A stretch of DNA of 64,000 nucleotides from an uncultured Gammaproteobacteria bacterium (GCA_964544585.1 CAZJBV010000004.1:5169-69168), one strand, 5' to 3'. Counted from the first letter of the stretch, positions 8,958 through 28,707 are shown. Numbers and translations: made by a program. The notes: a model not told the origin generated them from the sequence alone.

Positions 8958-10856
8958 CTAATAAAAAGGGTAAAATACCCATTCTATAAAAATATTATTT
9001 TCAAAAGGTTGAGGACCATTGTGGCGAAACCGTATCTCCAAAACGTCCTCTCCTTCCAAATTCTTTGAAAGCTTCTCAATATAAGGATCAACCCATACAC
9101 CAGAAGACATATTATCTACAACCAATCTATGAGTCACCTCACGATTTTGCAAACGATAATCTATATACGCTTCTGTTTCCTTCCAAATATATCTCAAAAG
9201 TCTACCAAAAGGCGTATATCCGGCGTAAACGTTTGCTCTTAAAACTCCCTGGTCAACCTCTTTAACTTTAATCCACTCATTCCACAACCCTAAAGTTCTC
9301 CCGATAATAACGGGCTTCTTAAAATGCAGAAAATTGTTTTTTTTCAAAAGAGCCACTGAAGAATCAATCAATTCTACATTATAATTATTAAAAATCGCCA
9401 TTATTGTATTTGGCTCATCATTTAATATATATCTTCCGTCGATACTTTCCATTTTCCCATATGTCTCCCAATTGTAGTGAAAAATGACAAATTCAGGCGC
9501 GACAGGCGAGGTAAAAAATGCTTCATTGCGTTTATCAAGCCAAGGCGTACTGACAATATACGACTGAAATACAGGACGTGGTTTCCAGGACAAATTATTT
9601 GCAGGTATGTATGATAACTCAAAGGGATAAGTATCAACTTCTTTATTTTTGATTCCTTCTTTGATTTGATCTGAAAGAACTGATTGAGGTAAGTTAACAA
9701 TACTAATATTTTGTAAGAAAGCAAAACGTTCATTATACTTAATTACAGATTCATAAAAATTGATAAATCCATTAAGATGTAAAAATCTATCTGCAATTTT
9801 AGATAAATCAAAAGGATAAGCTGGAAAAGTTACCAGAATATTAGCAAAAAGAATCACCAAAGATAAAATAATTAAACTTAAAACTTTTAATGCAACCCTC
9901 CCTATATAAATCAAAAATAGGAAAAAAAATATTAATATAAAATCCCAAAAATATAATACATGGTGAATATCTTCCCTCGAATATCCATATTTTGCTATTG
10001 CATACAATGTTGGAATAAATAAAAGATAATAAAAGATAACTTTCTTAGATCGCCATAAAAAAGGAACTCCGAAAAAAGATACTACGAACAGAAGATGCAA
10101 AAACCAATTTTCATTCTGACTTATTGTCATCGCCGAAGAATTACTTGAAGCTATTTCAAACCTGCTTAGGATAAAAGTTCCAATTCCAGAAAAAGTCCTG
10201 TTGGAAACTACCCAAAATATTAAAAAAAAGTAAATAAATCCTACAATTATAAATATCAACTCAATTATTTTCCGCCTCTTTCTAAAATGAGGAATAATCT
10301 CAAACAAAATAAAACTAAGAAGTATTAAAATCGATGAGACTGCAGAAGGCATCATGGTAAGAGTCGCAAATGCACTAACTCCAGTTCCAATCACTAAATA
10401 CCGTATTGATCCTGTCTCTTTGTAATACAATAAAGCCATAGCTACAGTGAACGGCAGCATGTACATGAAAAGATAGCGAAATTCTACAAATGACGAAAGT
10501 ATCAATACTAAAACGGCCAGAATTATCACGCGAATAGGTGTACCTTCGTTTGCTTCACCCAATTTAAGAGCCAAATAAATAAAAATTATTTTAATTATGC
10601 TAAATACAGCAATTGCAATGACTAAATTATTTCCTATAGCTTGAGGAAACATAAGAAACCCAAGTGGACCATAAGAAAAAATAATATCCTTTCCAACTAC
10701 CGCACCCTGATCAAATAAATAATTCAATGCCCATATATAAGAATGATCCAAACCTGGCTGAGCCGAAAAACCAATTAATGGAAAAGTCAAAAAAAAGATA
10801 ACTATTGTAGCTAAAAATAAAAAATTTCTTTTAAAAGCCAATAAAATTTGCTTCAT
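8958..10856 (-). CDS. Large membrane protein with N-terminal multi-TM region and ~250-aa C-terminal soluble domain; putative glycosyltransferase/polymerase
   Basis: 632 aa. TM-rich first ~380 aa then a hydrophilic domain. Family not recognised. Confidence 0.35.
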   Translation of the reverse strand: MKQILLAFKRNFLFLATIVIFFLTFPLIGFSAQPGLDHSYIWALNYLFDQGAVVGKDIIFSYGPLGFLMFPQAIGNNLVIAIAVFSIIKIIFIYLALKLGEANEGTPIRVIILAVLVLILSSFVEFRYLFMYMLPFTVAMALLYYKETGSIRYLVIGTGVSAFATLTMMPSAVSSILILLSFILFEIIPHFRKRRKIIELIFIIVGFIYFFLIFWVVSNRTFSGIGTFILSRFEIASSNSSAMTISQNENWFLHLLFVVSFFGVPFLWRSKKVIFYYLLFIPTLYAIAKYGYSREDIHHVLYFWDFILIFFFLFLIYIGRVALKVLSLIILSLVILFANILVTFPAYPFDLSKIADRFLHLNGFINFYESVIKYNERFAFLQNISIVNLPQSVLSDQIKEGIKNKEVDTYPFELSYIPANNLSWKPRPVFQSYIVSTPWLDKRNEAFFTSPVAPEFVIFHYNWETYGKMESIDGRYILNDEPNTIMAIFNNYNVELIDSSVALLKKNNFLHFKKPVIIGRTLGLWNEWIKVKEVDQGVLRANVYAGYTPFGRLLRYIWKETEAYIDYRLQNREVTHRLVVDNMSSGVWVDPYIEKLSKNLEGEDVLEIRFRHNGPQPFENNIFIEWVFYPFY

Positions 10857-12487
10857 TTGGTAAACTTATAAATCCGAAACTCTTCAAGAGATGTGGTCAA
10901 TATCGCCCAAGGAAGAAAGCGATCGCCAGTTGCATAGTATCCCCTCGGAGCAACTAACGAATCCGTCAAAGTCCGAAATACGGTCAAAATATTATGTGGT
11001 ACTTCTTCCGGGGTTATATATTGTAAATATTGCTGATGATTTGGATTTATATACTGCGTTTCAGTAGATGGTAAGACTAAATAGTCTCCGTTTAAAAATT
11101 CAGACCTCCACGTATCATATTGCATCATACCCTCTTTTCTTGCATACCACTGCCATCCCCAATGACCGGCAAAAAATATAGAAGTAAAATCTCCTTTTTG
11201 TTGTTGAAACGTCTTTACAGATTGCAATAATCTAGGCGCATAATTTCTGTATACATCAGCAGTAATCCAGTCAGAAATTGCCAATATTATTCCCAAAAAT
11301 AAAGTCAGAAAACATGCGAAAAGCACCACTGGTTTCGACAAATGAACATAAAGAACACTTCCTAAAATAAGAAGAACTACTGGAATCACGATAAGTACAT
11401 GCCGTACCGCCATAAAGGGAACAAAAATACTCATCACAATCGATCCTCCCAAAAACCAGAAAAAAAGGATAATATATGGGATATTCTTTTCTTCAGAGAA
11501 ATGGGATTTGATCCGCCGGAATATAAAGAAAAAGTAATACAATAAAAGACTAATAAGAAAAATACCATTTGCAAGGAATGCAAGACGAAGAATATAACTT
11601 GAAGTTGGCTCCCCACTAAATATCCAGTTAGCTTGGGAATAAAATATTGAAAAAACGATACTTCCAATAAGTATTATTGCGCGTCTATCAAAAAGACAAA
11701 ATGGTACCAATACAAGCGTAAAAGGACTCATTGATCCTATTGTTACCACAAAGAGAACTACCCATTGTCTTATCCTCTCAATTGAAATAGGTGTATTTTG
11801 TGATCCCAAAATATGTATCCCGCCATACTCCCAGTAATTAAATAAAGACCAACCAATTATAATTGCGATTGGTATCAATATAACCCAAAAAAGACTCCAT
11901 CGCCGGCGAAGAATAATATCTAAACAAAGTATTGGTACAAGAATAAAACCAGAGTATTTTGTCATTGTTGCAAAACCAATCATCAAGGCTGCAAAAACGT
12001 ATCTTTTCAATGCTCCTGATTGTCCGTATGGCGTCAAAAGTGCCCAGAAAAATGCTAGCCAAAAGGCAACATTTGGCACATCCAGCATCAAATTTTGGCC
12101 TGGCAAGAAAGACGGCCCCAATATAAACATCGCCGTAAATATAAATCTATATTTGAACACAAACTGCTTTGCTAAAAGATAAAAGAATATAATGGATCCG
12201 AGAGTAAATATTGACATCAGTAGATGCATTCCAAATTCAGATATGCCAAAAATTCGAATGACAAAAGCATAAAGATATGGAATAAAAAGAGGATGATACC
12301 TATATCTAATTTGCTCGAGAGTATCAAACCAATTCAACCATCCAGACATAGGATGAAGTGGATCTTGTGCTATATGAATTGCTTCTTCGATATATGCAGT
12401 ATCATCAATATGAAGCGCTTTAGTCAGATTAAATACGGTTGCCAGAAGCCATATAAAAAAGAGTATCAGTAGGGTTTTATTAATCAT
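10853..12487 (-). CDS. ArnT/PMT_2-like GT-C glycosyltransferase (first-loop motif LHIDDTAYIEEA)
   Basis: 544 aa polytopic membrane protein with acidic D-D-T-x-Y loop motif and C-terminal soluble domain. Confidence 0.5.
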   Translation of the reverse strand: MINKTLLILFFIWLLATVFNLTKALHIDDTAYIEEAIHIAQDPLHPMSGWLNWFDTLEQIRYRYHPLFIPYLYAFVIRIFGISEFGMHLLMSIFTLGSIIFFYLLAKQFVFKYRFIFTAMFILGPSFLPGQNLMLDVPNVAFWLAFFWALLTPYGQSGALKRYVFAALMIGFATMTKYSGFILVPILCLDIILRRRWSLFWVILIPIAIIIGWSLFNYWEYGGIHILGSQNTPISIERIRQWVVLFVVTIGSMSPFTLVLVPFCLFDRRAIILIGSIVFSIFYSQANWIFSGEPTSSYILRLAFLANGIFLISLLLYYFFFIFRRIKSHFSEEKNIPYIILFFWFLGGSIVMSIFVPFMAVRHVLIVIPVVLLILGSVLYVHLSKPVVLFACFLTLFLGIILAISDWITADVYRNYAPRLLQSVKTFQQQKGDFTSIFFAGHWGWQWYARKEGMMQYDTWRSEFLNGDYLVLPSTETQYINPNHQQYLQYITPEEVPHNILTVFRTLTDSLVAPRGYYATGDRFLPWAILTTSLEEFRIYKFTK

Positions 12488-13079
12488 TAATTTTTTCCAA
12501 ATTATACCTCAAAATAATAGAGTCCAACACAGCCTTTTGCACTCGAAACCCAATTCTTTTATAAAAGCCAAAAGCGTCTTTGTTACTTTTTAAAGTATCG
12601 ACATAGAGATATCTCACTCGGAGAATAATATATTGTTTCATTATTTTATTTATCAAACTTTTTCCTACTCCCTTTTTTTGATAGTCATTTGCAACAAAAA
12701 GTGTCAGAATCGTCGCATATGGTTTAGTAAATTTAGTGACCAGAATTTTCTCGAAATGGAATTTACGATATAGCTCTGAAAGAGAAATCTTGCCCAAAAA
12801 AGTCGCCTTTAGTATCAATAAAACTGTTTTAAATGTAATCAGTGTCTTTAAAAAACTCTGCGTTTTATTCAAGTCAACAGTAGAAGTAACAACGCCAACT
12901 ATCTTCCTGTCTACTTCCGCTACATACAAGGCGTGGATATCTTCATGTTTCAATAAAGTAACATAAAGTAACTCGAGGTAGGATTCTCCTATTTTAGATG
13001 ACAATGTATTTGGCAATATCTCCAAATGAAGTCTGACTACATCCTCCAAATCTCGTATCCTAAGCAAACGGATTATCAT
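12480..13079 (-). CDS. GNAT family N-acetyltransferase
   Basis: Motif YQKKGVGKSLI (acetyl-CoA P-loop-like), 199 aa. Confidence 0.55.
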   Translation of the reverse strand: MIIRLLRIRDLEDVVRLHLEILPNTLSSKIGESYLELLYVTLLKHEDIHALYVAEVDRKIVGVVTSTVDLNKTQSFLKTLITFKTVLLILKATFLGKISLSELYRKFHFEKILVTKFTKPYATILTLFVANDYQKKGVGKSLINKIMKQYIILRVRYLYVDTLKSNKDAFGFYKRIGFRVQKAVLDSIILRYNLEKIND

Positions 13080-13822
13080 GGCATCGTACGCAAAATATGT
13101 TTTTCGGTAAGAAGTTGCATCGTCATCATCATATACTTACTTCCTCGCCGAAGATACTGCAATAGATTTTGCCCTGTCTTAGAAATGCCTTTTCTCCGAG
13201 GTAAACAAATATATGGAATTTCTACTATTTTAAATCCGTATGCAAATGATTTATATATAAAATCGATAAAGTATTCACCATAATCGCCTCGTAGCCTTAT
13301 CTTTCGAAAAACATTTTTCCTTACTGCCACAAAACCGCTCGTATAATCTCGAAAATGCCTACCCAATAAAATCTGTATGGAATAATTCATTAACCGACTC
13401 AAGAAAACCGCCAGGAGAGAATCCTTCATTCCTTCAGCCTGCTTCTTAAAAGCCCCGCCTTTCACAAATCTTGATCCGACAGCAATATCAAAACCTTTAT
13501 CTATTTTTTTCAATAACTCATTTATTAAAGATGGTGGCATGGAAAAATCACAATCCATCCAGACAATAATATTTCCTCTGGCAATATCGATTCCTCTTTG
13601 AATACTGTTTGTCAATCCCCTATTTTTTACACGCATCTCCACTAGTACGTTTTTTATTCCATATTTGTTGATATAATTGCCGACAATATTTGCCGTCCCA
13701 TCCGGAGAATTATCATCAACCACAATAATCTCTTTTTTTATTTTCACCATCTTCGTAATTTCTTTAATTAAGGGAATAATATTTTCCGCTTCATTATAAG
13801 TAGGAAGAATGATAGAAATCAT
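13076..13822 (-). CDS. Family 2 glycosyltransferase (polyprenyl-phosphate sugar synthase, DPM1/CsbB-like)
   Basis: MISIILPTYNEAENI ... VVDDNSPDGT ... D-x-D region; 248 aa without TM tail. Confidence 0.8.
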   Translation of the reverse strand: MISIILPTYNEAENIIPLIKEITKMVKIKKEIIVVDDNSPDGTANIVGNYINKYGIKNVLVEMRVKNRGLTNSIQRGIDIARGNIIVWMDCDFSMPPSLINELLKKIDKGFDIAVGSRFVKGGAFKKQAEGMKDSLLAVFLSRLMNYSIQILLGRHFRDYTSGFVAVRKNVFRKIRLRGDYGEYFIDFIYKSFAYGFKIVEIPYICLPRRKGISKTGQNLLQYLRRGSKYMMMTMQLLTEKHILRTMP

Positions 13823-14958
13823 GAAAGTATTTTTTTTATAGCCGCAACTACTGATCTTATTTGTCTTTCTGTAATTGCCAAACCCGACGGTATATAAAAA
13901 CCTCTTCGCGATAAATCATCAGATATAGGACATTTCTCCTTCTTAAAAAATCCCAAATTTCGCAAAATAGGCTGTCTATGCAAGGGTATAAAATAATCTC
14001 TTGTATCTATTCCACTCATTCGCAGTCTATTGCAAAGTTCGTCTCGAGTAATATATAATTTTTTAGTAACACGCGGCGCATACATCCAGTAAACATTTAT
14101 CACTCCCGGCAAAGAGGATGGTAGCTCTAAATTTTCTATATTTTGAAGACCTCTATTATAAAGTTGCGCCATCCAGAGCTTTTTTTTTATATAACTTTCG
14201 ACTTCTTCAAGCTGAGCCAAACCCAATGCTGCCTGTAAATTAGTCATCCTGTAATTAAAACCCAATTCTTCATGGTAAAATCGCCTTTTGGGAGAATGAG
14301 CTAAATCTTTAAGAAGTCTTGCTTTTTTTGCTATGTCTGGATTATTTGTCACAACCATTCCGCCCTCTCCTGTCGTCACAATTTTATTTCCATAAAATGA
14401 AAAACATCCAATATCTCCCAACGATCCCACTTTTTTCCATTCATACATCCTTGCATTCTCCATTTTTTTCATTTGTATTTCCGCTCCGTGCGCCTCTGCC
14501 GCATCCTCAACCACATAAAGATTATGCTTTTTAGCAATTCGGATAATTTCATTCATCTTTGCCGGATGTCCATAAAGATGGACTACCATAATTGCTTTTG
14601 TTTTCCTTGTAATTTTTTCTTCTATTAAATTTGGATCAATATTTCCAGTTGTACTTTCCACATCAACTACAACCGGATTTGCTCCCGTATATAAAACCGC
14701 ATAAGCACAAGATATGATTGTTAGATCAGGAAGTATTACTTCATCGCCTTTTCCAATACCTAAAGAAGCAAGAGCCAAGTGGAGCGCGGCAGTCCCATTT
14801 GTCGTGGAGACTCCATATTTTGTCCCTATATATGAAGAAAATGCTTCTTCAAATTCTCCTATATATTTTCCTGCAGAAGATACCCACCCTGTCTTTATAC
14901 AGTCACTAACATATCTTTGCGCATTTTTACCAATAAGAGGCTCATTTACGGGAATCAT
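13819..14958 (-). CDS. DegT/DnrJ/EryC1 family PLP-dependent sugar aminotransferase (second copy)
   Basis: Blocks TNGTAALHLAL, AIMVVHLYGHPAKM, VVEDAAEAHGAE, GDIGCFSFYGNKIVTTGEGGMVVTNN. Confidence 0.85.
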   Translation of the reverse strand: MIPVNEPLIGKNAQRYVSDCIKTGWVSSAGKYIGEFEEAFSSYIGTKYGVSTTNGTAALHLALASLGIGKGDEVILPDLTIISCAYAVLYTGANPVVVDVESTTGNIDPNLIEEKITRKTKAIMVVHLYGHPAKMNEIIRIAKKHNLYVVEDAAEAHGAEIQMKKMENARMYEWKKVGSLGDIGCFSFYGNKIVTTGEGGMVVTNNPDIAKKARLLKDLAHSPKRRFYHEELGFNYRMTNLQAALGLAQLEEVESYIKKKLWMAQLYNRGLQNIENLELPSSLPGVINVYWMYAPRVTKKLYITRDELCNRLRMSGIDTRDYFIPLHRQPILRNLGFFKKEKCPISDDLSRRGFYIPSGLAITERQIRSVVAAIKKILS

Positions 14959-14970
14959 AATAACTAAAAA

Positions 14971-15399
14971 TTAAGATCGAAAATATATCTTGGCGTGCTC
15001 TGTACCAGGGTAAGGACCCTGTTTTACCTCAAATATCTTTGTATTGGCAAGGACCTTTATTCCATGTCCCTCTTTCATCAGAAGAATGCTATCACCCGTC
15101 TTTAAAATCTTACGTGTTATGGTAAAACCCTCTTTAGTATAAAGAGTTACCAATATTTTACCTTCTTGAATTACTAAAACTTCTTGAATAGTATCTATAT
15201 TTAAAGACTTTTGCATTTTATGTATATGCGGGGAAAGAACGGTACCTTTTTTTCGCTGATGGATACCTATTTGAAAAGGATTAGAAACATCCGTAAAAAA
15301 CTTCACGCCTAATACTTGAATATTTCTTCTCAAAACCAAAGCCACAATCTGCTTTTTATGTCTTACAAACTCTACGCCTTTCATAACATATATATTCAA
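14971..15399 (-). CDS. Small cupin-fold protein (sugar ketoisomerase/epimerase-like, FdtA/RmlC-type candidate)
   Basis: 142 aa. Cupin motif 2-like G-x5-M-K-E-G-H-G-x3-L-x-N and His-rich SPHIHK. Assignment by context. Confidence 0.35.
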   Translation of the reverse strand: MNIYVMKGVEFVRHKKQIVALVLRRNIQVLGVKFFTDVSNPFQIGIHQRKKGTVLSPHIHKMQKSLNIDTIQEVLVIQEGKILVTLYTKEGFTITRKILKTGDSILLMKEGHGIKVLANTKIFEVKQGPYPGTEHAKIYFRS

Positions 15400-16361
15400 A
15401 ACCTATGCCTATATATTAACGGTTCTTTTGACAATTTATCCCAATTTTGATTCACCCACTCCACCACTTCATCGATTCCCTTCTCCAATGTAATTTCTGG
15501 CATCCATCCCAAATGTCTGATTTTACTAGAATCCAAAACATATGCTTTATCCTGCCCCAACCGATCAGAAGCAATATTGGCTGAATTTTTGAATGACACC
15601 CCCATCTTCTCACAAATCATTCTAACCAAATCTCTTATCGAAATACTTCTATCCGGTGAAATATGATATATCTCTCCATCCTTTCCCTTCAAAAGAGCAA
15701 TTAGTTCTCCGTGGCTTACATCTTTTATATGAATATATGACTTAATCGCCCTCCCACCCCCTTCAAGCGGGATTTTTATCTTTTTCTTTATTGAAATAAT
15801 TGTTTTTGGAATAATTCTAAAAGCTTGTTGACCAGGTCCATACACATTTGTTGATCTAATAAAAATAACGGGAAAATTATAATTTTTATTTATGGTCATT
15901 AAATACAAATCTACCGCAGCCTTTGATGCCGCATAAGGAGTACTTGGATTCAATTTAGTATCCTCTTTTGCTCTCCCGATTGTTGTTCCATACACTTCCG
16001 GCGTCGAAATGTGTACATATCTCTTCAAATATTTCTTCTCCTTCAAAAAATTAGCCAATGAAACGATCGCAAAACAATTAGTTTGAAAATAATGTTCGGG
16101 ATAATTCCAGCTTGAGGATACCTCCACCAATCCGGCAAAATTAATTATATACTCCGGCCGAAAATCATCAAAAAGTTCAAATAACTTTTTCCGCTGGGAA
16201 TTAAGGTCAATCTGTGCAAAACGAAAATTTTGATTTTTGATTTTTGATTTTTCTTTCGACCTGCTTACTCCGACCACTTCCCAATCCCCCTCATTTAATA
16301 AAAGATCCACAAAATGACTTCCAGAAAACGAATTACTCCCCAATACAACAATCTTTTTCAT
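15396..16361 (-). CDS. NAD-dependent epimerase/dehydratase (extended SDR; 4,6-dehydratase/reductase-like)
   Basis: Rossmann VVLGSNSFSGSHFVDLLL, YAASKAAVD (YxxxK), 321 aa. Confidence 0.75.
   Translation of the reverse strand: MKKIVVLGSNSFSGSHFVDLLLNEGDWEVVGVSRSKEKSKIKNQNFRFAQIDLNSQRKKLFELFDDFRPEYIINFAGLVEVSSSWNYPEHYFQTNCFAIVSLANFLKEKKYLKRYVHISTPEVYGTTIGRAKEDTKLNPSTPYAASKAAVDLYLMTINKNYNFPVIFIRSTNVYGPGQQAFRIIPKTIISIKKKIKIPLEGGGRAIKSYIHIKDVSHGELIALLKGKDGEIYHISPDRSISIRDLVRMICEKMGVSFKNSANIASDRLGQDKAYVLDSSKIRHLGWMPEITLEKGIDEVVEWVNQNWDKLSKEPLIYRHRF
16232..16252. repeat. (GATTTTT)x3 heptanucleotide repeat inside the SDR CDS
   Basis: Read directly; encodes KSKIKNQN. Confidence 0.8.
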
Positions 16362-17434
16362 TAAAACGGCCCTTTAAATCTTAAATCTGGCACATCCGAC
16401 GGTATTTCTTTCTTTTTTTCGATTTCCGCAGCCAAAATTCTTTTTGCTTTATCGCTTTGTACTCCCATTAAACGTAAAGCTTTCTCTAAAATATCTATAT
16501 GAGTTGGATAATAATATTCTGCCAATTTCCATGAAGTCGGAGTAGGACTATCCGGCAATGTTAGCGTCACCGGCGCCATTTTCAGGCTCGAAAAGGCATT
16601 TTTATACACCCTCGCCAAAATCTCTGAAGCAGTCCCAAAAGAAGAAAATCCTGTATCACAGACGATCAGTCTCCCGGTTTTCTTTATCGATTTTAATAAA
16701 GACTTCTCATCCAAGGGTTTAACCGTCCTTAAATCTATGACTTCTGCCTCAATACCCTCTTTTTTCAAGACATCCGCTACTCTCATACATTCTACTACCA
16801 TATATGATGTACCAACTAACGTGATATCGTTTCCCAATTTCGCTAGTCGTACGCGACCAATGTGCTCGGTATAATATTTCTCAGGCACCGCGCCTTTTAT
16901 CCCATGTAGCCATCTATGTTCTATAAAAATGACAGGATTAGGATCAACGAGAGCTGAAATTAGCATTCCCTTAGCATCAGCAGGAGTCACTGGCATAACC
17001 ACTTTCAGTCCCGGAAAATGCCCATACATCGCCTGTAAACTCTGCGAATGTTGTGCTCCCTGTCCCCATCCTCGCCCCACTATCATTCTTATAACAATTG
17101 GCACACTTTGTATTTCCCCAAACATCGAATACCACTTTGCCGCCACATTGACTATCTGATCTACAGAATATATCGAAAAGTCGACCCTCTGGTGCGTTAG
17201 GAGTGGGCGCAAACCGCGAAGTGCAGCCCCTATGCATACTCCCGTTATTCCACTCTCTGAAACAGGCATATCCATTACCCTTTTTTTGCCATATTTTTTT
17301 TGCAAACCCAATGTCGTCCCAAATATTCCCTTTGGATCAGGCACTCCTTCACCTATCACAAAGATTCTTTTATCTCGTGCCATCGCCTGATCCGTTGCTT
17401 CATAAATTGCTTGAGCGTATGTTATATTTCTCAT
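16361..17434 (-). CDS. Thiamine-diphosphate-dependent 2-oxoacid dehydrogenase E1 component, beta subunit (transketolase C-terminal-like)
   Basis: Strong collinear similarity to PdhB/AcoB: GEGV, PVSESGITGVCIGAALRGLRP, GLKVVMPVTPADAKGML, NPVIFIEH, VIDLRTVKPLD. Confidence 0.8.
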   Translation of the reverse strand: MRNITYAQAIYEATDQAMARDKRIFVIGEGVPDPKGIFGTTLGLQKKYGKKRVMDMPVSESGITGVCIGAALRGLRPLLTHQRVDFSIYSVDQIVNVAAKWYSMFGEIQSVPIVIRMIVGRGWGQGAQHSQSLQAMYGHFPGLKVVMPVTPADAKGMLISALVDPNPVIFIEHRWLHGIKGAVPEKYYTEHIGRVRLAKLGNDITLVGTSYMVVECMRVADVLKKEGIEAEVIDLRTVKPLDEKSLLKSIKKTGRLIVCDTGFSSFGTASEILARVYKNAFSSLKMAPVTLTLPDSPTPTSWKLAEYYYPTHIDILEKALRLMGVQSDKAKRILAAEIEKKKEIPSDVPDLRFKGPF

Positions 17435-18387
17435 GCGTAAACCTTTCTTAACATTTTCTTATCCGGGTACGGACTATTCTTTGCAAATTCAAAGGCTTTT
17501 TCAATCTCTCCTCCTATTTCCTTTTTCATTTCTTCAATTTCCAAAGTAGTTAAAATTTTTTTTTCAAGAATATAGTTAGTAAAAAGTTTAATTGGGTCCT
17601 TTTTTTGCCACAATCTGATTTCTTTCTCTGGCCTATATCCAGGTGGATCATAAAGATGGCCACAGTGCTCCAAATATCTATACGTTGTCAACTCTACAAA
17701 CACCGGCTTTTTTTCTTTTTTTACATAAGCCAAAGCCTTCCCACCCACGTTATAGACCTCCATTACATCATTTCCGTCTCCCGAAAAAGTTTTTATTCCC
17801 ATGCCTTTAGCCCGTGGCCAAATGGAAATGCTTGGCTGCCTATCCAAAATATGAGTCGATATGGAATATAAATTATTCTCGCAAATAAAAAGAATTGGAA
17901 TATTTCTTAAAACTGCAAAATTGACGCTCTCAAAAAATACCCCTTGTTCAGTCGCCGCATCGCCAAAAAAGACGGCTCCTACAGTGTCATTTCCCTTCAA
18001 TGTCTCCGCCCAAACGGCTCCGACTGCCAAAGGTATAGTTTCGGAAACAATAGGAATCGCCCCACAAAAATTAACCGAAAGATCAATCAGGTGTTGCGAC
18101 CCTCCTATCCCCCCACTACAACCAGTTGCCTTTCCATAAAGTTCCGCAACCATCGCCTTAAGGTCTCCACCTTTTGCCAAATAATGGCCATGCGATCTGT
18201 GATAAGAAAAAACAATGTCCTTTTGCCGAAGGTGGAAAGAGATTCCAGTAGCTATTGCTTCTTGTCCTATATACAAATGGGTCGGGCATCTTATTTCCTG
18301 TTTTTTATATTCCTCGGCAATTCCCTCTTCCACCATCCTTATCCTGAGAAGCTGATAAAAAAGTTTTTTAATAATTTTATTTGTCAT
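17431..18387 (-). CDS. Thiamine-diphosphate-dependent dehydrogenase E1 component, alpha subunit
   Basis: E1_dh motifs YRSHGHYLAKG, GGSQH, FFGDAATEQGVFFESVNFA, ICENNLYSIST. It overlaps the beta subunit by 4 nt. Confidence 0.8.
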   Translation of the reverse strand: MTNKIIKKLFYQLLRIRMVEEGIAEEYKKQEIRCPTHLYIGQEAIATGISFHLRQKDIVFSYHRSHGHYLAKGGDLKAMVAELYGKATGCSGGIGGSQHLIDLSVNFCGAIPIVSETIPLAVGAVWAETLKGNDTVGAVFFGDAATEQGVFFESVNFAVLRNIPILFICENNLYSISTHILDRQPSISIWPRAKGMGIKTFSGDGNDVMEVYNVGGKALAYVKKEKKPVFVELTTYRYLEHCGHLYDPPGYRPEKEIRLWQKKDPIKLFTNYILEKKILTTLEIEEMKKEIGGEIEKAFEFAKNSPYPDKKMLRKVYA

Positions 18388-19016
18388 TTAAATGGTACAG
18401 CTCTATTTTTACTTCTCTTTCCTTCATGTTTAACGAGCGAAATCCAAGAAGTCATAATATGGTCAACCACAAGCTGTATGTCCTCACATGGACCATAATG
18501 ACGACTTTTAGTAATAATTGCCTCATCAACCATCTTCCCCAATTTTCCTCCGGTAGTAAACCCCAAAATTCCTACCGTCGTCGCTCGACACTTTTTGGCA
18601 TATTTTATTGCCCGGATTAGATTCGGACTATTTCCTGATCCTGATAGAGCCAAAACCACATCCCCCCTCTCTATCAGATTTCTAAGTTGCTGCACAAAAA
18701 TATCCTCAAACGAAAGATCATTGCCATACGCAGTCAACGTCGCCACATTATCAGTCAGACTATAGACTCTCAAACGCTTTTCTTTCTGATCATAAACTCG
18801 CCTCAATGTTCCTTTGGAAAGATCACACGCCATATGAGACGCAGTTGCTGCACTCCCGCCGTTTCCTATTATAAATACCTTTTTATCTCCTTTATAAGCT
18901 CTTAAAAGTATATTAATTACTTTCTCAATCTGTTTTTTATCAAGACTATCAAGCGTCTTCTTCAATTCTTCTATATACCTGTCAATAAAAGTCACAAGTC
19001 TTAATTTCTTTGGCAT
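18384..19016 (-). CDS. gmhA: SIS-domain sedoheptulose-7-phosphate isomerase (GmhA-like)
   Basis: FIIGNGGSAATASHMACDL and ALSGSGNSPNLIRAIKYAKK match the GmhA signature; 210 aa. Confidence 0.7.
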   Translation of the reverse strand: MPKKLRLVTFIDRYIEELKKTLDSLDKKQIEKVINILLRAYKGDKKVFIIGNGGSAATASHMACDLSKGTLRRVYDQKEKRLRVYSLTDNVATLTAYGNDLSFEDIFVQQLRNLIERGDVVLALSGSGNSPNLIRAIKYAKKCRATTVGILGFTTGGKLGKMVDEAIITKSRHYGPCEDIQLVVDHIMTSWISLVKHEGKRSKNRAVPFK

Positions 19017-19040: not shown

Positions 19041-20027
19041 TTATTGAATTTTTCTATTCTTCATCATCTTCACATTGTAGTATTGTATACTTTCCATTGG
19101 ATTTGGTATCTGCCCTTTTTCATATGCTCTCTTCAAATCCATAATCGCCTCTTCAACCGTATGCTTCGGCTTAAACCCCAATTCTTTATAAATTTTCTTT
19201 GAAGAAATATGATAAGATCTCAAATCGTGAGTCCGAGTAAAAATGATCTTTATCCCGCTATCTCCTATTACCTTTTTTATCATTAAAGCTATTTCTTTGA
19301 GCGTATAATTTTCATATCCAGCATTAAATATTTTTCCCGCAATTTTCTTATCATCATACTCTAGAGTTTTTATATAAAGACCAGTCATATCCTCAATATG
19401 AATATTTGGTCGCTTCTGACTTCCTCCAAAAACTGTAATTTTTTTATTGACCAAAGCCTGCATACTAAGCATATTGACAGTCAGATCAAGTCTAAGCCTC
19501 TTTGAATAACCACACACGGTAGCTGGTCGAAGAACCAAAACTATAAAATCATGGTTTCCCTTTTTCAAAGTATATTCCTCCGACATTGCCTTATATTTCG
19601 AATAATCTGTTAAAGGTTCAAGAGACAACTCTTCGTGAACTTCTTTTTCCTTCTTTATCCCATACACGCTAGACGATGAAGCATAAATAAATCTCTTGAC
19701 TCCAGCATTCTTTGCCAAATCAGTTAGAAGTACAGTTGCATCATAATTTATAGATTTCCCTAAATTTGGGTCAAGCTCAAAACTCGGATCATTGGATATA
19801 CATGCTAAATGAATTACCGCATCGATCCCTTTTAATTCTCTTTGCAAAAGTCTCTTATCCCTTATATCTCCCTTTATCTCTCTTAATTTCCTATGTTTTT
19901 TAAAAACGGTTGGGTTATATAGATACCAATCGATAACCTTCACCTCATACCCTTTTTTCAAGAGTTTTGGCACAAGTACAGCCCCTACATACCCCGCTCC
20001 GCCCGTCACCAACACACGTTTTATCAT
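19041..20027 (-). CDS. NAD-dependent epimerase/dehydratase (extended SDR; heptose 6-epimerase/4-epimerase candidate)
   Basis: VLVTGGAGYVG Rossmann, SSSVYG, YxxxK; 328 aa. Adjacent to GmhA and the HldE-like gene. Confidence 0.7.
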   Translation of the reverse strand: MIKRVLVTGGAGYVGAVLVPKLLKKGYEVKVIDWYLYNPTVFKKHRKLREIKGDIRDKRLLQRELKGIDAVIHLACISNDPSFELDPNLGKSINYDATVLLTDLAKNAGVKRFIYASSSSVYGIKKEKEVHEELSLEPLTDYSKYKAMSEEYTLKKGNHDFIVLVLRPATVCGYSKRLRLDLTVNMLSMQALVNKKITVFGGSQKRPNIHIEDMTGLYIKTLEYDDKKIAGKIFNAGYENYTLKEIALMIKKVIGDSGIKIIFTRTHDLRSYHISSKKIYKELGFKPKHTVEEAIMDLKRAYEKGQIPNPMESIQYYNVKMMKNRKIQ

Positions 20028-20046: not shown

Positions 20047-20099
20047 AAATTTAAAAATTTAAAATTGATTAAAAATTTAAAATTTAAAATTTAAAATTA
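20047..20099. repeat. Intergenic AAAATTT-type heptanucleotide array (3 perfect units at 20072-20092 plus degenerate units)
   Basis: Read directly. It lies between the stop of 20097..21644(-) and the start of 19041..20027(-), in the promoter/5' region of the latter. Confidence 0.8.
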
Positions 20100-21644
20100 T
20101 TTTAACAGTCTATTTATCATAATATGCATATCATCAAATGTAATCGATCTACTATTTCCAATAACCTGTACTTGTAAAGCTCCAGCTATATTTCCCAAAA
20201 AAGAAACCAACTCCACCGGCATCTGGCTGTAAACGCCTGGACTGGTAATCGCAAACAACGCATCCCCGGCTCCGACCCTATCTATCACACGCTGTGTCAA
20301 TGCCGGTGACAGCATGAAACCATCTTTTTCAGTGTAACTTATCGCCCCATTATAGCCTCTTGTTACTATAATTACCTGACACTTCATCTTTTTATATATC
20401 CGCCGAATTAGATCCTCTATATCCCCATATTTATCATGCATCGCCAGTCTCATTTCTTGCTCATCAATACACACATAATGCGCCCGTGGATATTTCGTAA
20501 TTACATTAAATCCATAGTTTGCGCTGTTTGCCTGGACATTCAATGCAATGTACTTTCCGTATTTGCAAATAGTTTTAACCAAAGCTTCGGTCAAAAATCC
20601 ATGTCCAAAATCATTAACAATAACCATGTCATACTTTAGTAATTCCTGTTTGAGTAATTTCTTTATACTCCGCTCTAATTTTCCTTCAATCTCATCATCA
20701 TCGATATAGCTTACCTGGAAAAGTTTCTGCTTCGTGTCAATATCCACGAATCGCCTCTTGATAACTGTATGCGTGCCTGATCTTATAAAAAAAGTATGAC
20801 GAATGGGCCTTTTTAGCCTCTTTTCTATAAATGATTGAAAAGAATTTTTCTCTCCCAAAAGACTAATAAGACTAATACGCTTTGATAATGACACCACATG
20901 ATTTGCAGTGGCGAGAGCCCCCCCCAAGTATGATTCTTCTGATAAAAATTTGTTGACAATCACAGGTTCTTTAGAAGATTTCCCCACCGGTTTAGAATAG
21001 TGATACTGATCAATGATCGCATCACCTATGATAAGTATTTTTATATCCTCCAATTTCCGCATCCAGTCAACCACATCGTCAGTAGTATAGTCACGCCTCA
21101 AATTCTCTAAATATCGCCTCGTGCGAGCGGGATAGACATCGATATATGAATTAATAAGTTTGGTCGAGGAAAAAACAATATCATCGGTAAACTCGAGCTT
21201 ACCCCCCACTTTTTTGACCGCCTCCTCTTCTTCCAGAAGCCTTTTATATATGGAAGTATCCTTCCTTATTCCTCTATAATCCGGGCCTTTCAGGTATACA
21301 TCAGGTTTAATAGCCATTATTGCCGCCACCGCGCTCTCTGACCTATCTATAGAAACATAATCAACAAAAGATATAGAAGATAAAAACTCTGCCCGGAGTC
21401 TCTCATGAAAAATAGGTCTTCCCGGACCTTTTTTGACAAAAACATCAGCCGTGATCGTCACAACGACTATATCTCCCCTTTTTTTCGCCTCCTCAAAATA
21501 GCGGATATGCCCCGGATGAATAAGATCAAATACTCCATGACAATGTATTATCTTTTTTCCCTCCTTTTTCAACCTGGATATTATTTTAGATAAATCCGAA
21601 ATTCTTTTTACCTTTTTTCTTGGATTGATTTCCATGTGTGGCAA
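20097..21644 (-). CDS. Bifunctional heptose-phosphate kinase / nucleotidyltransferase, HldE(RfaE)-like but with reversed domain order (N-terminal cytidylyltransferase-like, C-terminal PfkB kinase)
   Basis: N-terminus HCHGVFDLIHPGHIRYFEEAKKRGDIVVVTITAD matches HldE domain II (GVFDILHAGH...AVNSD). C-terminus IKILIIGDAIIDQY...GGALATANHV...VIDRVGAGDALFA matches the ribokinase-like domain I. Confidence 0.7.
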   Translation of the reverse strand: MPHMEINPRKKVKRISDLSKIISRLKKEGKKIIHCHGVFDLIHPGHIRYFEEAKKRGDIVVVTITADVFVKKGPGRPIFHERLRAEFLSSISFVDYVSIDRSESAVAAIMAIKPDVYLKGPDYRGIRKDTSIYKRLLEEEEAVKKVGGKLEFTDDIVFSSTKLINSYIDVYPARTRRYLENLRRDYTTDDVVDWMRKLEDIKILIIGDAIIDQYHYSKPVGKSSKEPVIVNKFLSEESYLGGALATANHVVSLSKRISLISLLGEKNSFQSFIEKRLKRPIRHTFFIRSGTHTVIKRRFVDIDTKQKLFQVSYIDDDEIEGKLERSIKKLLKQELLKYDMVIVNDFGHGFLTEALVKTICKYGKYIALNVQANSANYGFNVITKYPRAHYVCIDEQEMRLAMHDKYGDIEDLIRRIYKKMKCQVIIVTRGYNGAISYTEKDGFMLSPALTQRVIDRVGAGDALFAITSPGVYSQMPVELVSFLGNIAGALQVQVIGNSRSITFDDMHIMINRLLK

Positions 21645-21707
21645 TAATAACGGGGGAACTCAAAGAATTCAAGAGGACCAATTGATTTACTCATATTCAG
21701 CATATCC

Positions 21708-21736
21708 TTGACAACTAATAGTTCTTATTGTATCAT
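21708..21736 (+). promoter_or_regulatory. Sigma70-like promoter TTGACA-N17-TATCAT upstream of brnT
   Basis: -35 at 21708-21713, -10 at 21731-21736, ATG at 21748. Confidence 0.45.
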
Positions 21737-21747
21737 ACAGTATATAC

Positions 21748-22059
21748 ATGGATGTGATTGATGATGTTACAGAATTTGAATGGGATAAAGGAAATAAAGA
21801 TAAAAACTGGATAAAACATAAAGTACGCCAAGAAGAAGCAGAACAAGCTTTCTTTGATAAAAATAAAGTAATATCAGATAACCTATCGCGCTCACAAAAG
21901 GAGAAAAGATATATTTTACTAGGCAAGACAAAAGAAGAAAGACTTTTATATATTGTCTGTACTGTAAGAAAACAAAAAATTAGAGTTATTTCTGCTCGAG
22001 ATATAAATAAAAAGGAGGTAAAATTATATGAAAAAACCACTAAAAATACCAAAATTTAA
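21748..22059 (+). CDS. brnT: BrnT-family (DUF497) type II toxin
   Basis: FEWDKGNKDKNWIKHKV...EAEQAF...RYILLGKT...RLLYIVCTVR..IRVISARD matches the BrnT consensus. Confidence 0.65.
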   Translation: MDVIDDVTEFEWDKGNKDKNWIKHKVRQEEAEQAFFDKNKVISDNLSRSQKEKRYILLGKTKEERLLYIVCTVRKQKIRVISARDINKKEVKLYEKTTKNTKI

Positions 22060-22294
22060 AACAGAGGACGAGGAAAGGGATTTCTGGGCTCGGCTTGATT
22101 TAGCGGAATACTTTGAGCCTGCTGATTTCCATAGAGTTTCATTTCCCAACCTAAAACCAACTACCAGACCTATCTCCATAAGACTTCCAGAGTATTTAAT
22201 AAATATGGTCAAAGAAAAAGCCAACGAACTCTCTATCCCCTATCAAAGCCTGATTAAACAATACATTAAAAAAGGAGTAATGTCAGAATTATAA
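22028..22294 (+). CDS. brnA: BrnA-type (CopG/RHH-like) antitoxin
   Basis: RPISIRLPEYLINMVKEKANELSIPYQSLIKQYIKKGV matches the BrnA C-terminus. Preceded by an AGGAGG Shine-Dalgarno. Confidence 0.6.
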   Translation: MKKPLKIPKFKTEDEERDFWARLDLAEYFEPADFHRVSFPNLKPTTRPISIRLPEYLINMVKEKANELSIPYQSLIKQYIKKGVMSEL

Positions 22295-22300
22295 TTTACT

Positions 22301-23284
22301 TTAGGTTAGATACCTAAACCACTCCCTTGTTTCTTTTCTTATTTTTTTTGGAGTCCATACAGGAGCTTTTTTCCAATAATCAATATTTTCCAGCATAATT
22401 TTTACCCCCTCCGCAAAAATCACTTTCGGTCTCCAACCTAAGGCTTTCTGAATTTTTCTAATATCCGCTTGTGTTTTATCCGGTTCTCCAGGTCGCTTGG
22501 GTATATACGTCACTTTTCCACCTAAAAGCTTAACCAATGTATTTACACTCTGAGGCTTTCCAGTTCCCACATTAAAAACTTCTCCACTCACTTTGGATTC
22601 CACAGCTTTTATAAATGCATCTATAACATCAGTCACAAAAGTAAAATCTCGAACTTGGGTCCCATCTCCTACTACAGTAAAAGGACAACCAGCAAGCTTT
22701 TGCGCCAAAAAAACTCCAAACACGGCCCCATATGTACCTGATGTCCTCGATCGCGGCCCATATACATTAAAAAGCCTCAACGAAATAAGCGGAAGTTTAT
22801 ATATATGCGCCCAGGAAAGAGCATAAATTTCTCCAGCATATTTTGTCAGTGCATAAGGATATCGAGGATCGATTTCTGCCACTTCACTGGTCGGATATGT
22901 TTTGGGAATTCCATAACAAGACGATGATGCAGTATAAATAAATCTTTTTATTCCTGCCTGTCTCGCTGCCTCAAGTACATTAAACGTTCCATCCACATTA
23001 GCCCGATGATAATCCAATGGCCTTATTATCGAAGGTACAATGTCGGCTAGGGCCGCCAAATGAAAAACCCAATCTACTTTCTGAAAATATTTGTCGAGTT
23101 TCTCAACATTTTTTGAAATATCTACTCGGAAAAAGCTTAATTTGTCACTTTTAATATATGAAAGATTCTCTCTTCTTCCAGTTGCCAGATTATCCAAGAC
23201 AATTACACTATGACCATCCCTAATAAGACGCTCAACCAAATGGCTTCCTATAAATCCCGCTCCTCCGGTAACAAGTGTTTTCAT
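22301..23284 (-). CDS. NAD-dependent epimerase/dehydratase (UDP-glucuronate decarboxylase/4-epimerase-like)
   Basis: LVTGGAGFIGSHLVERL, ASSSSCYG, YALTKYAGE; 327 aa. Confidence 0.8.
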   Translation of the reverse strand: MKTLVTGGAGFIGSHLVERLIRDGHSVIVLDNLATGRRENLSYIKSDKLSFFRVDISKNVEKLDKYFQKVDWVFHLAALADIVPSIIRPLDYHRANVDGTFNVLEAARQAGIKRFIYTASSSCYGIPKTYPTSEVAEIDPRYPYALTKYAGEIYALSWAHIYKLPLISLRLFNVYGPRSRTSGTYGAVFGVFLAQKLAGCPFTVVGDGTQVRDFTFVTDVIDAFIKAVESKVSGEVFNVGTGKPQSVNTLVKLLGGKVTYIPKRPGEPDKTQADIRKIQKALGWRPKVIFAEGVKIMLENIDYWKKAPVWTPKKIRKETREWFRYLT

Positions 23285-26800: not shown

Positions 26801-27517
26801 TTAAGAAAAATATACTCTCCTATATAAGGATATAGTATTTCCTAAAGCTTGCAAAACGCCTCTTACTGTTAAAATTTTAGAAGACCCATGCTGTCGCGGG
26901 GTATGCTCAAATGGTATCTCTTTAATCGTCGCATTTTTTTTTAGAAGTAATACCTTTATCTCACCTAATATTGCAATACTTTCCGAGGCAAGCCTTAGAT
27001 TCTTAATAAGTTTTGTTTTACAAACAAAATAACCGGTGAAATAATGCAATCTTAAACCAAAAAGAAGATTCATCAAAAGTACATAACTTCTAGAGGCAAT
27101 ACGCCGGAAAAATGTCCTAGCAGATGGATTACTCATATAAGACGAAATAATATCAGTATTCCTCGCCTCCTTCATCAAGAAAAGAAGCGATTTCCAAGAC
27201 ATATCATTATCTCCAGGAAATCCTCCAAAGTATTCTTTTGATGCCTTTCTGATTCCTCTTCTAAACGCATATCCAAATCCTTTATTCACCTCATTATGCA
27301 AAACAATTATATGTGTGTCTTTCTTTGCCAGGTCTTCCATTATTCTCCCCGTAGAGTCATCGCTTCCATCATCAACTAAAATTACCTCATAGTTACTAGT
27401 CACATTCTCACAGGCTTTTTGCACACTTTCCCAAGCATCCTTAATATTTTTCTCTTCATTATATGCACAGACTACAATCGAAAAACTCATGTATAAAACT
27501 CTCTTATCTTTTTGCAC
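26801..27517 (-). CDS. Family 2 glycosyltransferase (polyprenyl-phosphate sugar synthase, GtrB/DPM1-like catalytic domain)
   Basis: FSIVVCAYNEEKNI...VILVDDGSDDST... Confidence 0.8.
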   Translation of the reverse strand: MQKDKRVLYMSFSIVVCAYNEEKNIKDAWESVQKACENVTSNYEVILVDDGSDDSTGRIMEDLAKKDTHIIVLHNEVNKGFGYAFRRGIRKASKEYFGGFPGDNDMSWKSLLFLMKEARNTDIISSYMSNPSARTFFRRIASRSYVLLMNLLFGLRLHYFTGYFVCKTKLIKNLRLASESIAILGEIKVLLLKKNATIKEIPFEHTPRQHGSSKILTVRGVLQALGNTISLYRRVYFS

Positions 27518-28620
27518 ACATACTTGACTTGTTCTTTTGAAAGATACTGATTACAAGGTAGCGTAATTATGGTTTCTGCCTGTCTTTCTGTAACCGGAAA
27601 ACTTCCTTTTTTATAACCCAAGTACTTGGCAGCTTTCTGCATATGAATAGGAATCGGATAGTGTATTTTTACCTCGACTCCATTTTCAATAAGATATTTA
27701 TATAACCCATCACGCTTTTTAACTTGGACGACATAATTTGTATATGTAGGCAAGGTAGGTCTAGCACACACAGTACGTGAAGGAATATGCACAAACTCTT
27801 CTAAACCTGAAAGACCTTTATCATACCAACCAGCTACCTGCTTCCTTTTTCTTAGGAGTTTATCATGTTCAGAAAGCAGAGTATCGACAATTACTGCCTG
27901 CACGCTATCCAGTCTACTGTTATGAGCAAAAAATTCGACATGATCACGATCAACTAAACCGTGATTTCGCATTAGCCTAAGTTTTGCTGCCAATTTATCA
28001 TCATTTATTGAAATTGCTCCACCATCTCCCCATACATTCAGAATCTTCAATGGATGAAAAGAAAAACATCCGGCTGTTCCAAAACTGCCAGCACATTTCC
28101 CATCATATTTTGCCAAAGCCGCCTGCGCCACATCCTCAATCACATGGAGCTTATATTTCTTCGCAATATCTAAAATTGGATACATATCCGCCAAATTTCC
28201 AATAAGATGTACCGGAATAATTGCTCGTGTTTTTGAGGTTATTGCCTTTTCCAAAAGATCCGGATCCATTGTATAGTCATCTCTGACATCGACAAATCTG
28301 GGAGTTGCTCCAACCAAAGCTATCACCGATGCGCTCGCCACAAAGCTGTTTGGCGCCGTGATTACCTCATCCCCTGGCCCAATACCGAGCGCCAAAAGAG
28401 ACAGAAACAAAGCATCCGTCCCATTGGCCACCCCAATCACATGTTTAACCCCCAATTTCTTGGCAAATCGCTTTTCGAAGTCCCCAACCCTTTTTCCAAG
28501 CGTAAAATCCCCCTTGTCTACAACCTCTTTTATCCCCTGTAAATACTTTCCTATCTCTGGATAAAACTGCTCATGAAGATAAACATAGGGTACTTTAAAT
28601 TTCTTATTCGCCTTTTTCAT
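27487..28620 (-). CDS. DegT/DnrJ/EryC1 family PLP-dependent sugar aminotransferase (third copy)
   Basis: Blocks GVANGTDALFLSL, AIIPVHLIGNLADM, VIEDVAQAALAK, GTAGCFSFHPLKILNVWGDGGAISIND. The start is trimmed to the internal Met because the full ORF (to 28707) leaves no intergenic space before the divergent gene at 28708. Confidence 0.75.
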   Translation of the reverse strand: MKKANKKFKVPYVYLHEQFYPEIGKYLQGIKEVVDKGDFTLGKRVGDFEKRFAKKLGVKHVIGVANGTDALFLSLLALGIGPGDEVITAPNSFVASASVIALVGATPRFVDVRDDYTMDPDLLEKAITSKTRAIIPVHLIGNLADMYPILDIAKKYKLHVIEDVAQAALAKYDGKCAGSFGTAGCFSFHPLKILNVWGDGGAISINDDKLAAKLRLMRNHGLVDRDHVEFFAHNSRLDSVQAVIVDTLLSEHDKLLRKRKQVAGWYDKGLSGLEEFVHIPSRTVCARPTLPTYTNYVVQVKKRDGLYKYLIENGVEVKIHYPIPIHMQKAAKYLGYKKGSFPVTERQAETIITLPCNQYLSKEQVKYVCKKIREFYT

Positions 28621-28671
28621 GCAGCTAGTGTAAATGCTTTCTTCAAAAAAAACAACCGGAATTCTGCTATT

Positions 28672-28700
28672 GACAAGTCCTTTACCTTTTAATAAAATGT
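28672..28700 (+). promoter_or_regulatory. Sigma70-like promoter TTGACA-N17-TAAAAT for the vapB-like gene
   Basis: Read directly. It sits inside the extended DegT ORF's 5' region. Confidence 0.4.
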
Positions 28701-28707
28701 AAGACAT

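Follow-up and report, generated by a model that had tools for sequence, protein, structure and literature searches.

The closest described counterparts of the system considered here are stand-alone pairs of thiamine diphosphate (ThDP)-dependent, E1 alpha- and beta-like subunits from antibiotic biosynthesis, namely AviB1/AviB2 (avilamycin), Pau11/Pau12 (paulomycin) and EvdU5/EvdS3 (everninomicin), which are proposed to supply a 4-keto nucleotide sugar with an acetyl branch at C4 whose two-carbon (C2) unit derives from pyruvate (PMC4753412, PMC10338323). Pyruvate-dependent formation of a C–C bond on a sugar has been shown for no pair of this type (PMC10338323). The only biochemically proven example of such chemistry is YerE of yersiniose A biosynthesis, likewise a ThDP enzyme, whose acceptor is a 4-keto nucleotide sugar and whose C2 unit again stems from pyruvate. 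In the capsular heptose pathway of Campylobacter jejuni, Cj1427 acts as a GDP-heptose C4-dehydrogenase, and its keto intermediate is tailored by downstream enzymes (PMC10680097). Here we analysed a 64,000-nucleotide stretch of DNA catalogued under an uncultured Gammaproteobacteria bacterium (GCA_964544585.1, CAZJBV010000004.1:5169-69168; hereafter the window), in which an E1 alpha/beta pair is embedded among genes for heptose activation and nucleotide-sugar oxidoreduction. The Rho protein encoded in the window is 100% identical, over 87% of the query, to Rho of Candidatus Gottesmanbacteria, and we therefore assign the host to this lineage of the candidate phyla radiation (CPR).

Both E1 genes are intact and translationally coupled (Table 1). 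Read in the DNA, start and stop codons overlap as ATGA at the junctions of the GmhA-like gene with E1 alpha and of E1 alpha with E1 beta, and as TAATG where E1 beta meets the following short-chain dehydrogenase/reductase (SDR) gene, SDR2. The initial annotation had described a coupled pair flanked by GmhA and an SDR dehydratase, and the reading frames lie exactly where it had placed them, with a GmhA-like SIS protein upstream and an RmlB-like SDR downstream. The two proteins have the make-up of a heterotetrameric 2-oxoacid dehydrogenase E1, with an E1_dh alpha, a Transket_pyr/Transketolase_C beta, a ThDP-Mg motif and the catalytic Glu and His, and their top PDB matches are human pyruvate dehydrogenase (PDH) E1 alpha (3.5e-45) and E1 beta (1.4e-71). 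The catalytic set is intact in the alignments: the ThDP motif of alpha reads GDA...ENN (GDA, not GDG), E60 (the ThDP-activating Glu) and H129 of beta are invariant, and H241 of alpha aligns with the human active-site histidine. Residues of alpha that are invariant across the clade described below include RCPxH, HRSHGH, C90 and E240-H241-(C242)-G243, the last of these in the loop aligned with YRYHGHS of the human subunit. In an AlphaFold2 (AF2) model, beta reached a pLDDT of 92 and a TMq of 0.88 against human E1 beta over about 329 columns. To judge by its structural relatives, the pair presumably assembles as alpha2beta2. In three related loci, from Omnitrophota, Woesearchaeota and Planctomycetales genomes, alpha and beta are fused into single chains of 696-711 amino acids (aa).

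Table 1. Positions of the features discussed in the text, in the window and in related loci (L numbers).
Feature	Locus	Position	Strand	Length	Matches and remarks
E1 beta-like subunit	Window	16361-17434	-	357 aa	PF02779 (Transket_pyr) 3.8e-31; PF02780 (Transketolase_C) 4.4e-31
E1 alpha-like ThDP subunit	Window	17431-18387	-	318 aa	PF00676 (E1_dh) 5.2e-69
Beta C-terminal extension (residues 324-357)	Window	16364-16465	-	34 residues	Predicted helix 327-340, then terminal motif
Terminal motif D347-V-P-D-x-x-F-x-G-P-F357	Window	16364-16396	-		Invariant across clade
SDR2, RmlB-like extended SDR	Window	15396-16361	-		PDB 2hun 3.5e-43; STPEVYG replaces STDEVYG
GmhA-like SIS isomerase	Window	18384-19016	-		PF13580 1.6e-18; GmhA models 92-97 bits vs cut-offs 209-276
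SDR1, candidate Cj1427-like nucleotide-heptose dehydrogenase	Window	19041-20027	-		PDB 6vo6/6vo8 3.7e-48, aligned 1-305
HldE-like bifunctional protein, reversed domain order	Window	20097-21644	-		CTP_transf_like 36-126; PfkB 202-499
Gap between HldE-like gene and SDR3	Window	21645-22300		~650 bp	
TTG-start open reading frame in the gap	Window	21687-22052		121 aa	No family match
SDR3, GalE-like epimerase/oxidoreductase	Window	22301-23284	-		PDB 7ys8 1.3e-64
Downstream tailoring/transfer genes	Window	10853-15399	-		WbuC-like cupin, DegT aminotransferase, GT2, GNAT, PMT_2-type GT-C
DegT gene	Window	27487-28707			
PIN-domain gene	Window	28866-29414	+		
PIN-domain gene	Window	30262-30660	+		
ADH_zinc and methyltransferase genes	Window	30657-32341	-		Methyltransferase 218 aa
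Alg6/8-like region fused to NPCBM domain	Window	54937-56727			
Rho	Window	60968-62362			
Alpha-beta fusion	L036	6975-9065			
Alpha-beta fusion	L038	6972-9065			
Alpha-beta fusion	L061	6930-9065			
SDR-methyltransferase-ThDP enzyme triad	L017	10088-13416			Downstream of SDR2; also L010, L014, L022, L029, L044, L057, L065
Stand-alone E1 pair, Streptomyces plasmid	L090	10001-11035			Beta ends F-x-G-P-Y
Stand-alone E1 pair, Streptomyces plasmid	L094	11995-13032			Beta ends F-x-G-P-Y
L-2-hydroxyglutarate oxidase gene (lhgO)	L091	18337-18930			Ends pDMC1 sister E1 alpha/beta sugar cluster

The pair shares its fold, ThDP site and catalytic Glu and His with the E1 components of the PDH, branched-chain 2-oxoacid dehydrogenase (BCKDH) and acetoin dehydrogenase complexes, but it departs from them in several respects. 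Both subunits score under the NCBIfam cut-offs (alpha, TIGR03182, 302.4 bits against 393.85; beta, NF006667, 301.8 bits against 321), and beta is only 39-43% identical to E2-adjacent E1 beta chains (Shinella PDH, Azospirillum thermophilum acetoin dehydrogenase, human and Geobacillus). The active-site loop of alpha is remodelled, reading YRxREHCGP where human E1 alpha has YRYHGHS. A Pfam scan of nearly all open reading frames (ORFs) of at least 120 aa detected no 2-oxoacid_dh (E2), E3 or lipoyl family anywhere in the 64-kb window, in agreement with the earlier claim that the pair stands without E2 and E3. Among 235 unassigned neighbour ORFs at 80 related loci these families were outside the top 25 (at most two members per half), and the control loci L092 and L093 do have an adjacent E2. 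In a limited neighbour-joining tree the pair belongs to a monophyletic clade that lies outside both the E2-linked PDH and the acetoin E1 enzymes. Neither finding that the initial annotation had named as fatal to it, an E2/E3 operon just beyond the window or a firm placement among housekeeping PdhAB, was made. Judged by its sequence, the pair is thus not a housekeeping PDH E1.

This clade is distinguished by a C-terminal tail. The beta subunit runs 34 residues past the ends of the PDH, BCKDH and Geobacillus beta chains (at about residues 324-330), and the extension is absent from PDH, BCKDH and acetoin E1 beta chains, including the E2-adjacent ones. In the alignment it consists of a variable linker followed by a terminus of the form D-[VI]-P-D-x-x-F-x-G-P-F, which we found in 120/120 protein homologues and 80/80 genome loci (200/200), and which is kept in all three alpha-beta fusions; the best 120 beta homologues are all 351-392 aa long and span the tail. 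In the AF2 monomer model the helix at residues 327-340 has a pLDDT of 95-98 and the last 17 residues one of 60-70, a drop of the kind expected if this peptide docks on a partner subunit. The extension starts where an ordinary beta chain ends, at a surface that forms part of the E2-binding site (the 1W85 interface), and we infer that it would keep the peripheral-subunit-binding domain of E2 from binding there.

Our scan, with one genome per species, listed >525 relatives in species genomes. The locus-based counts given here rest on the best 80 of these, which are 51-61% identical and come from CPR bacteria, DPANN and methanogen-related archaea, Chlamydiae/Simkaniaceae, Omnitrophota, Cyanobacteria (including the cultured Lusitaniella coriacea), Nitrospinota, Planctomycetota, Desulfovibrionaceae and others. 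Archaea are nested among bacteria within the tail clade in the tree, which therefore points to horizontal transfer. Its nearest tree neighbours are other stand-alone E1 pairs. One of them, on plasmid pDMC1 of Solidesulfovibrio magneticus (L091), lies in a sugar cluster and has a beta without the tail; the others, two Streptomyces plasmid pairs, are the nearest relatives found in actinomycetes, and their clusters are not for sugars but resemble those for polyketide synthases and non-ribosomal peptide synthetases (PKS/NRPS). The Streptomyces pairs share the motif GRGWGQG..HSQSL and have beta chains ending in F-x-G-P-Y (F-A-G-P-Y in one, F-I-G-P-Y in the other), and a terminal aromatic-x-G-P-aromatic sequence may mark E2-independent E1 enzymes more generally. 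For annotation, the beta C-terminal motif provides a sequence signature that separates the enzymes of the tail clade from true PDH E1.

We then assigned the ORFs of the 80 loci by best match to the window proteins and counted partners in the 53 well-flanked loci. The same genes recur on the same strand, namely the GalE-like SDR3, the HldE-like and GmhA-like genes, SDR1, E1 alpha, E1 beta and SDR2. The HldE-like gene was found near the E1 pair in 40/53 loci, typically encoding a protein of about 508 aa with the reversed domain order across phyla; SDR1 in 38, directly before E1 alpha in 22 of them; SDR2 in 37, directly after E1 beta in 30; the GmhA-like gene in 32; and SDR3 in 20. Cassette copies of SDR3 are 53-72% identical across phyla (most 57-69%). 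The initial annotation had placed the pair in a sugar-nucleotide, possibly heptose, pathway, and the recurrence of most of these partners in the majority of the 53 loci, over many phyla, bears this out and makes the tie to heptose much stronger. The close relatives L003 and L005 repeat nearly the whole window operon. The distant relative L007 keeps only SDR1-E1 alpha-E1 beta-SDR2, and the adjoining genes are a radical-SAM gene and one that weakly matches the Pfam family GT9 (heptosyltransferases), an arrangement that argues for action on a nucleotide sugar. In the cultured strain Azospirillum oryzae KACC 14407 the complete cassette is plasmid-borne, with SDR1, the E1 pair and SDR2 at NZ_CP054615.1 212576-215649; behind it come two DegT genes, a radical-SAM gene and a NUDIX gene, and the E1 subunits have only generic names in the PGAP annotation. 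Our literature searches turned up no published cassette combining heptose genes with an E1 pair.

Several partners point to the substrate. SDR1 has PDB entry 6vo6 as its closest match, the second-best reaching only 3e-26, and in keeping with the depositors' name we take 6vo6 to be Cj1427. L-2-hydroxyglutarate oxidase is the expected recycling enzyme for a ping-pong dehydrogenase of the Cj1427 type, which yields L-2-hydroxyglutarate; an lhgO gene ends the pDMC1 sister cluster and fits such a dehydrogenase. The pathway of C. jejuni differs in employing GDP-alpha-heptose, epimerases and reductases and no ThDP enzyme, whereas the activation module of the window is HldE-like, combining a PfkB kinase with a cytidylyltransferase-like domain. 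SDR2 is similar to dTDP-glucose 4,6-dehydratases (2hun), but it is not a canonical enzyme of this type, because S-[ST]-P-E replaces the T-D-E of RmlB; S[ST]PE[VA]YG was found in 41/42 SDR2 orthologues.

Among the 235 neighbour ORFs, methyltransferases were the most numerous of the families counted (36), followed by radical-SAM proteins (26, with 11 ORFs matching B12-binding), classical SDRs (21) and ThDP enzymes of the acetolactate synthase (ALS)/YerE type (13-14); FkbM and TylCIII-type (Methyltransf_13) C-methyltransferase families also occur. A triad composed of a classical SDR (~270 aa), a class I methyltransferase (~230 aa) and an ALS/YerE-type ThDP enzyme (~590 aa) follows the cassette in eight loci (Table 1), and many clusters thus carry two different ThDP enzymes.

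We propose that the pair is an E2-independent ThDP carboligase that adds the C2 unit of pyruvate to an oxidized nucleotide-heptose destined for a surface glycan, a proposal that we consider the most likely reading, though its chances are no better than even. We infer its donor, acceptor, position of attack, order of steps and the role of the tail. The GmhA-like enzyme would isomerize sedoheptulose 7-phosphate (S7P), the reversed-order HldE-like kinase/nucleotidyltransferase would activate the isomerized heptose, and SDR1 would turn the nucleotide-heptose into a keto sugar, its homology favouring oxidation at C4. Pyruvate would then be decarboxylated by the E1 pair to hydroxyethylidene-ThDP, an acetyl-anion equivalent, whose addition to the carbonyl of the sugar would yield a C-acetyl or C-(1-hydroxyethyl) sugar of nine carbons, and SDR2, with its S-S/T-P-E motif, would reduce or re-tailor this product. 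In an attractive but speculative redox-neutral version, SDR1 would oxidize C4, E1 would acetylate it, and the NADH retained by SDR1 would reduce the product to the 1-hydroxyethyl form. In the Gottesmanbacterium the product would next be aminated (DegT) and N-acetylated (GNAT), moved to polyprenyl phosphate by the GT2 enzyme and transferred outside the cell by the PMT_2-type GT-C protein.

Branching at C4 is favoured both by the homology of SDR1 and by the proposals made for AviB1/B2, Pau11/12 and EvdU5/S3; by the same analogy the pair would build a C-branched sugar with a C2 unit taken from pyruvate, as the initial annotation had already suggested. These pairs, which we likened to ours by their descriptions, also comprise split E1 alpha and beta subunits without E2 or E3, set among nucleotide-sugar SDRs and adjoining an enzyme expected to make a 4-keto sugar, a part that SDR1 may play in the window. 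They differ in belonging to actinomycete antibiotic clusters and acting on hexose- or pentose-derived sugars, whereas the window holds a cell-surface glycan cassette with a heptose activation module found in many phyla. YerE differs in architecture, being a single-chain flavoprotein of the ALS family (TPP_enzyme_N/M/C) in place of a pair with E1_dh and transketolase-type domains.

A number of observations weigh against this proposal. Sugar branching by an E1 pair is itself a hypothesis, having only been proposed for its precedents (PMC4753412, PMC10338323). The ALS/YerE-type enzymes encoded near the pair in many related clusters belong to the family for which C4 acetyl branching is proven, so that the E1 pair may perform a C–C step other than classical C4 branching. 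The Pfam scan of the 64-kb window revealed no GmhB-type phosphatase. The GmhA-like and HldE-like proteins are distant paralogues, far under the equivalog cut-offs, and their substrate may thus differ from the canonical heptose. Finally, a DegT gene follows in the window; were its product to aminate C4, that sugar could not also be branched there.

A rival reading keeps the enzyme class and changes the C–C chemistry: the pair would extend or build the carbon chain instead of branching it at C4. The pair might add the C2 unit of pyruvate, as DXS does, to a terminal aldehyde of the nucleotide-heptose at C6 or C7, which would yield a linear 9-deoxy-nonose whose new ketone could be transaminated, or it might act at the level of sugar phosphates, upstream of the dedicated GmhA-like and HldE-like paralogues. 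The homology of E1 beta to DXS and to split transketolase would suit either version, as would the sub-cut-off scores of the paralogues, which in Coxiella coexist with a canonical HldE and hint at a non-canonical sugar (PMC5843353). In A. oryzae and about five other loci, E1 beta is immediately followed by tandem DegT genes, which would suit a new ketone in need of amination, and the YerE-type enzymes of the same clusters could take care of branching; together, these co-occurrences mean that chain extension or another C–C role may apply. We nevertheless consider chain extension unlikely, given that the most constant flanking partners are the two nucleotide-sugar SDRs, that L007 has the SDR1-E1-SDR2 core without a nearby GmhA or HldE, and that the closest characterized relative of SDR1, which we take to be Cj1427, oxidizes C4 and not C6 or C7. 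A GmhA-type enzyme, moreover, could not isomerize a pyruvate-derived 1-deoxy-ketose; an S7P or ketose-phosphate synthase feeding GmhA is disfavoured on this ground and survives only as part of the chain-extension scheme. The cassette also occurs in taxa expected to own a full pentose-phosphate pathway, which counts against an S7P-synthase role.

That the pair instead acts as a non-oxidative 2-oxoacid decarboxylase, or supplies a C2 or acyl unit for decoration and not for the sugar skeleton, appears distinctly improbable. An aldehyde or acyl unit ending as an N- or O-linked substituent, as appears to happen with stand-alone E1 pairs in Streptomyces secondary-metabolite clusters, would be in keeping with the non-sugar clusters of the nearest non-clade relatives and the motifs these share, as well as with the GNAT and aminotransferase genes near it in the window. 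However, the clade has no conserved association with a carrier protein, a CoA-ligase or an E2-like acyltransferase; what is conserved beside it is nucleotide-sugar SDRs. We also considered, and hold unlikely, that the pair decarboxylates a 6-keto-hepturonate or another sugar 2-oxoacid, as no gene of the UDP-sugar 6-dehydrogenase type, which would make such an acid, accompanies the clade. Least credible, and rejected here, is an ordinary pyruvate or acetoin dehydrogenase E1 merely placed in a glycan operon, with E2 and E3 encoded elsewhere. It would explain why the top named matches are PDH E1 alpha and beta and why all catalytic residues are kept, including the two histidines used in reductive acylation, but not the sub-cut-off scores, the lack of E2 and E3 in the window and among the 25 commonest families near the 80 related loci, the position in the tree, the tail or a cassette kept across many bacterial and archaeal phyla. 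The host is in addition a CPR bacterium, and CPR bacteria are not generally known to have PDH complexes.

Returning to the carboligase proposal, a possible parallel exists in the O-antigen region of Coxiella burnetii, cbu0664-cbu0704, which has been linked to the synthesis of virenose and part of which is missing from avirulent phase II strains (PMC5843353, PMC13552124). This region encodes a phosphoheptose isomerase (CBU0674), a UDP-glucose 4-epimerase (CBU0676), an NAD-dependent epimerase/dehydratase (CBU0677) and CBU0678, an HldE paralogue with reversed domain arrangement that is essential for phase I lipopolysaccharide and whose function is called unknown (PMC5843353, PMC13552124). By their locus numbers, CBU_0692, CBU_0693 and CBU_0686, described as horizontally acquired 'pyruvate dehydrogenases' and interpreted in terms of fatty-acid metabolism (PMC5423948), fall within the same region. 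By published annotation, which is the level at which we compared the two, the parts list is that of the cassette: GmhA-like, GalE-like SDR, second SDR, reversed HldE and E1 alpha/beta; and the HldE-like protein of the window, like CBU0678, has its nucleotidyltransferase at the N-terminus and its kinase at the C-terminus (PMC5843353). Two differences stand out. In the Coxiella literature the E1 genes figure as 'pyruvate dehydrogenases' that serve fatty-acid or acetyl-CoA metabolism, and virenose is a seven-carbon sugar bearing a C-methyl branch, for which a simple scheme of heptose plus C2 does not account.

We suggest tentatively, and with more doubt than confidence, that the tail clade and its cassette constitute an undescribed, horizontally mobile pathway in which an E2-free E1 forms a C–C bond on an activated heptose, that the F-x-G-P-F terminus replaces the partnership with E2, and that the same pathway underlies the requirement for CBU0678 and the E1 genes in phase I Coxiella. 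If true, its product would be a higher-carbon or C-branched surface sugar, and a textbook enzyme of central metabolism would have been repurposed as a stand-alone sugar-nucleotide carboligase for building the primary cell envelope in hundreds of lineages, with genome-reduced CPR bacteria, DPANN archaea and environmental Chlamydiae among them, far beyond a few antibiotic producers. It would also suggest a new reading of the O-antigen region of C. burnetii, the loss of which is the defining trait of avirulent phase II strains, and a tie between the cassette and this virulence-determining structure is plausible. Stand-alone sugar E1 pairs were known before as an unproven kind of enzyme; the previously unrecognized signature and its very wide distribution are new. 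The cassette offers a concrete, testable set of enzymes, for which A. oryzae KACC 14407 and L. coriacea LEGE 07167 are cultured sources.

As for the wider context, the initial annotation had described a 12-gene minus-strand glycan operon; the operon stands, but the co-directional run is longer, with about 21 genes from 28707 down to 7971. The tailoring and transfer genes downstream of SDR2 recur in the close relatives L003 and L005 and are not conserved across the wider clade. The gap between SDR3 and the HldE-like gene holds a single ORF (Table 1); in L003 just 26 bp separate SDR3 from the HldE-like gene. Upstream, two plus-strand PIN-domain genes, probably a toxin-antitoxin insertion, interrupt the run between a DegT gene and the ADH_zinc and methyltransferase genes, where glycan genes resume. 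The ADH_zinc and methyltransferase genes match cassette neighbours elsewhere in domain layout (a 219-aa methyltransferase in L049 and an ADH at the start of L003 and L005), and probably belong to the same pathway despite the distance. A scan of the window for promoters and terminators gave no useful signal, with 73 hits where 76 were expected and 13 where 12 were. Positions 1-59000 are almost wholly a glycan island. Many PMT_2, YfhO and Alg6-like GT-C proteins are encoded in the window, along with enzymes of the GT2 and GT4 families, several methyltransferases, three aminotransferases of the DegT type and two GNATs. Its large membrane proteins, 490-770 aa long, number more than ten, several without a family and several matching PMT_2, YfhO, Alg6/Alg8 or DUF6541, and in one protein an Alg6/8-like region is fused to an NPCBM domain.

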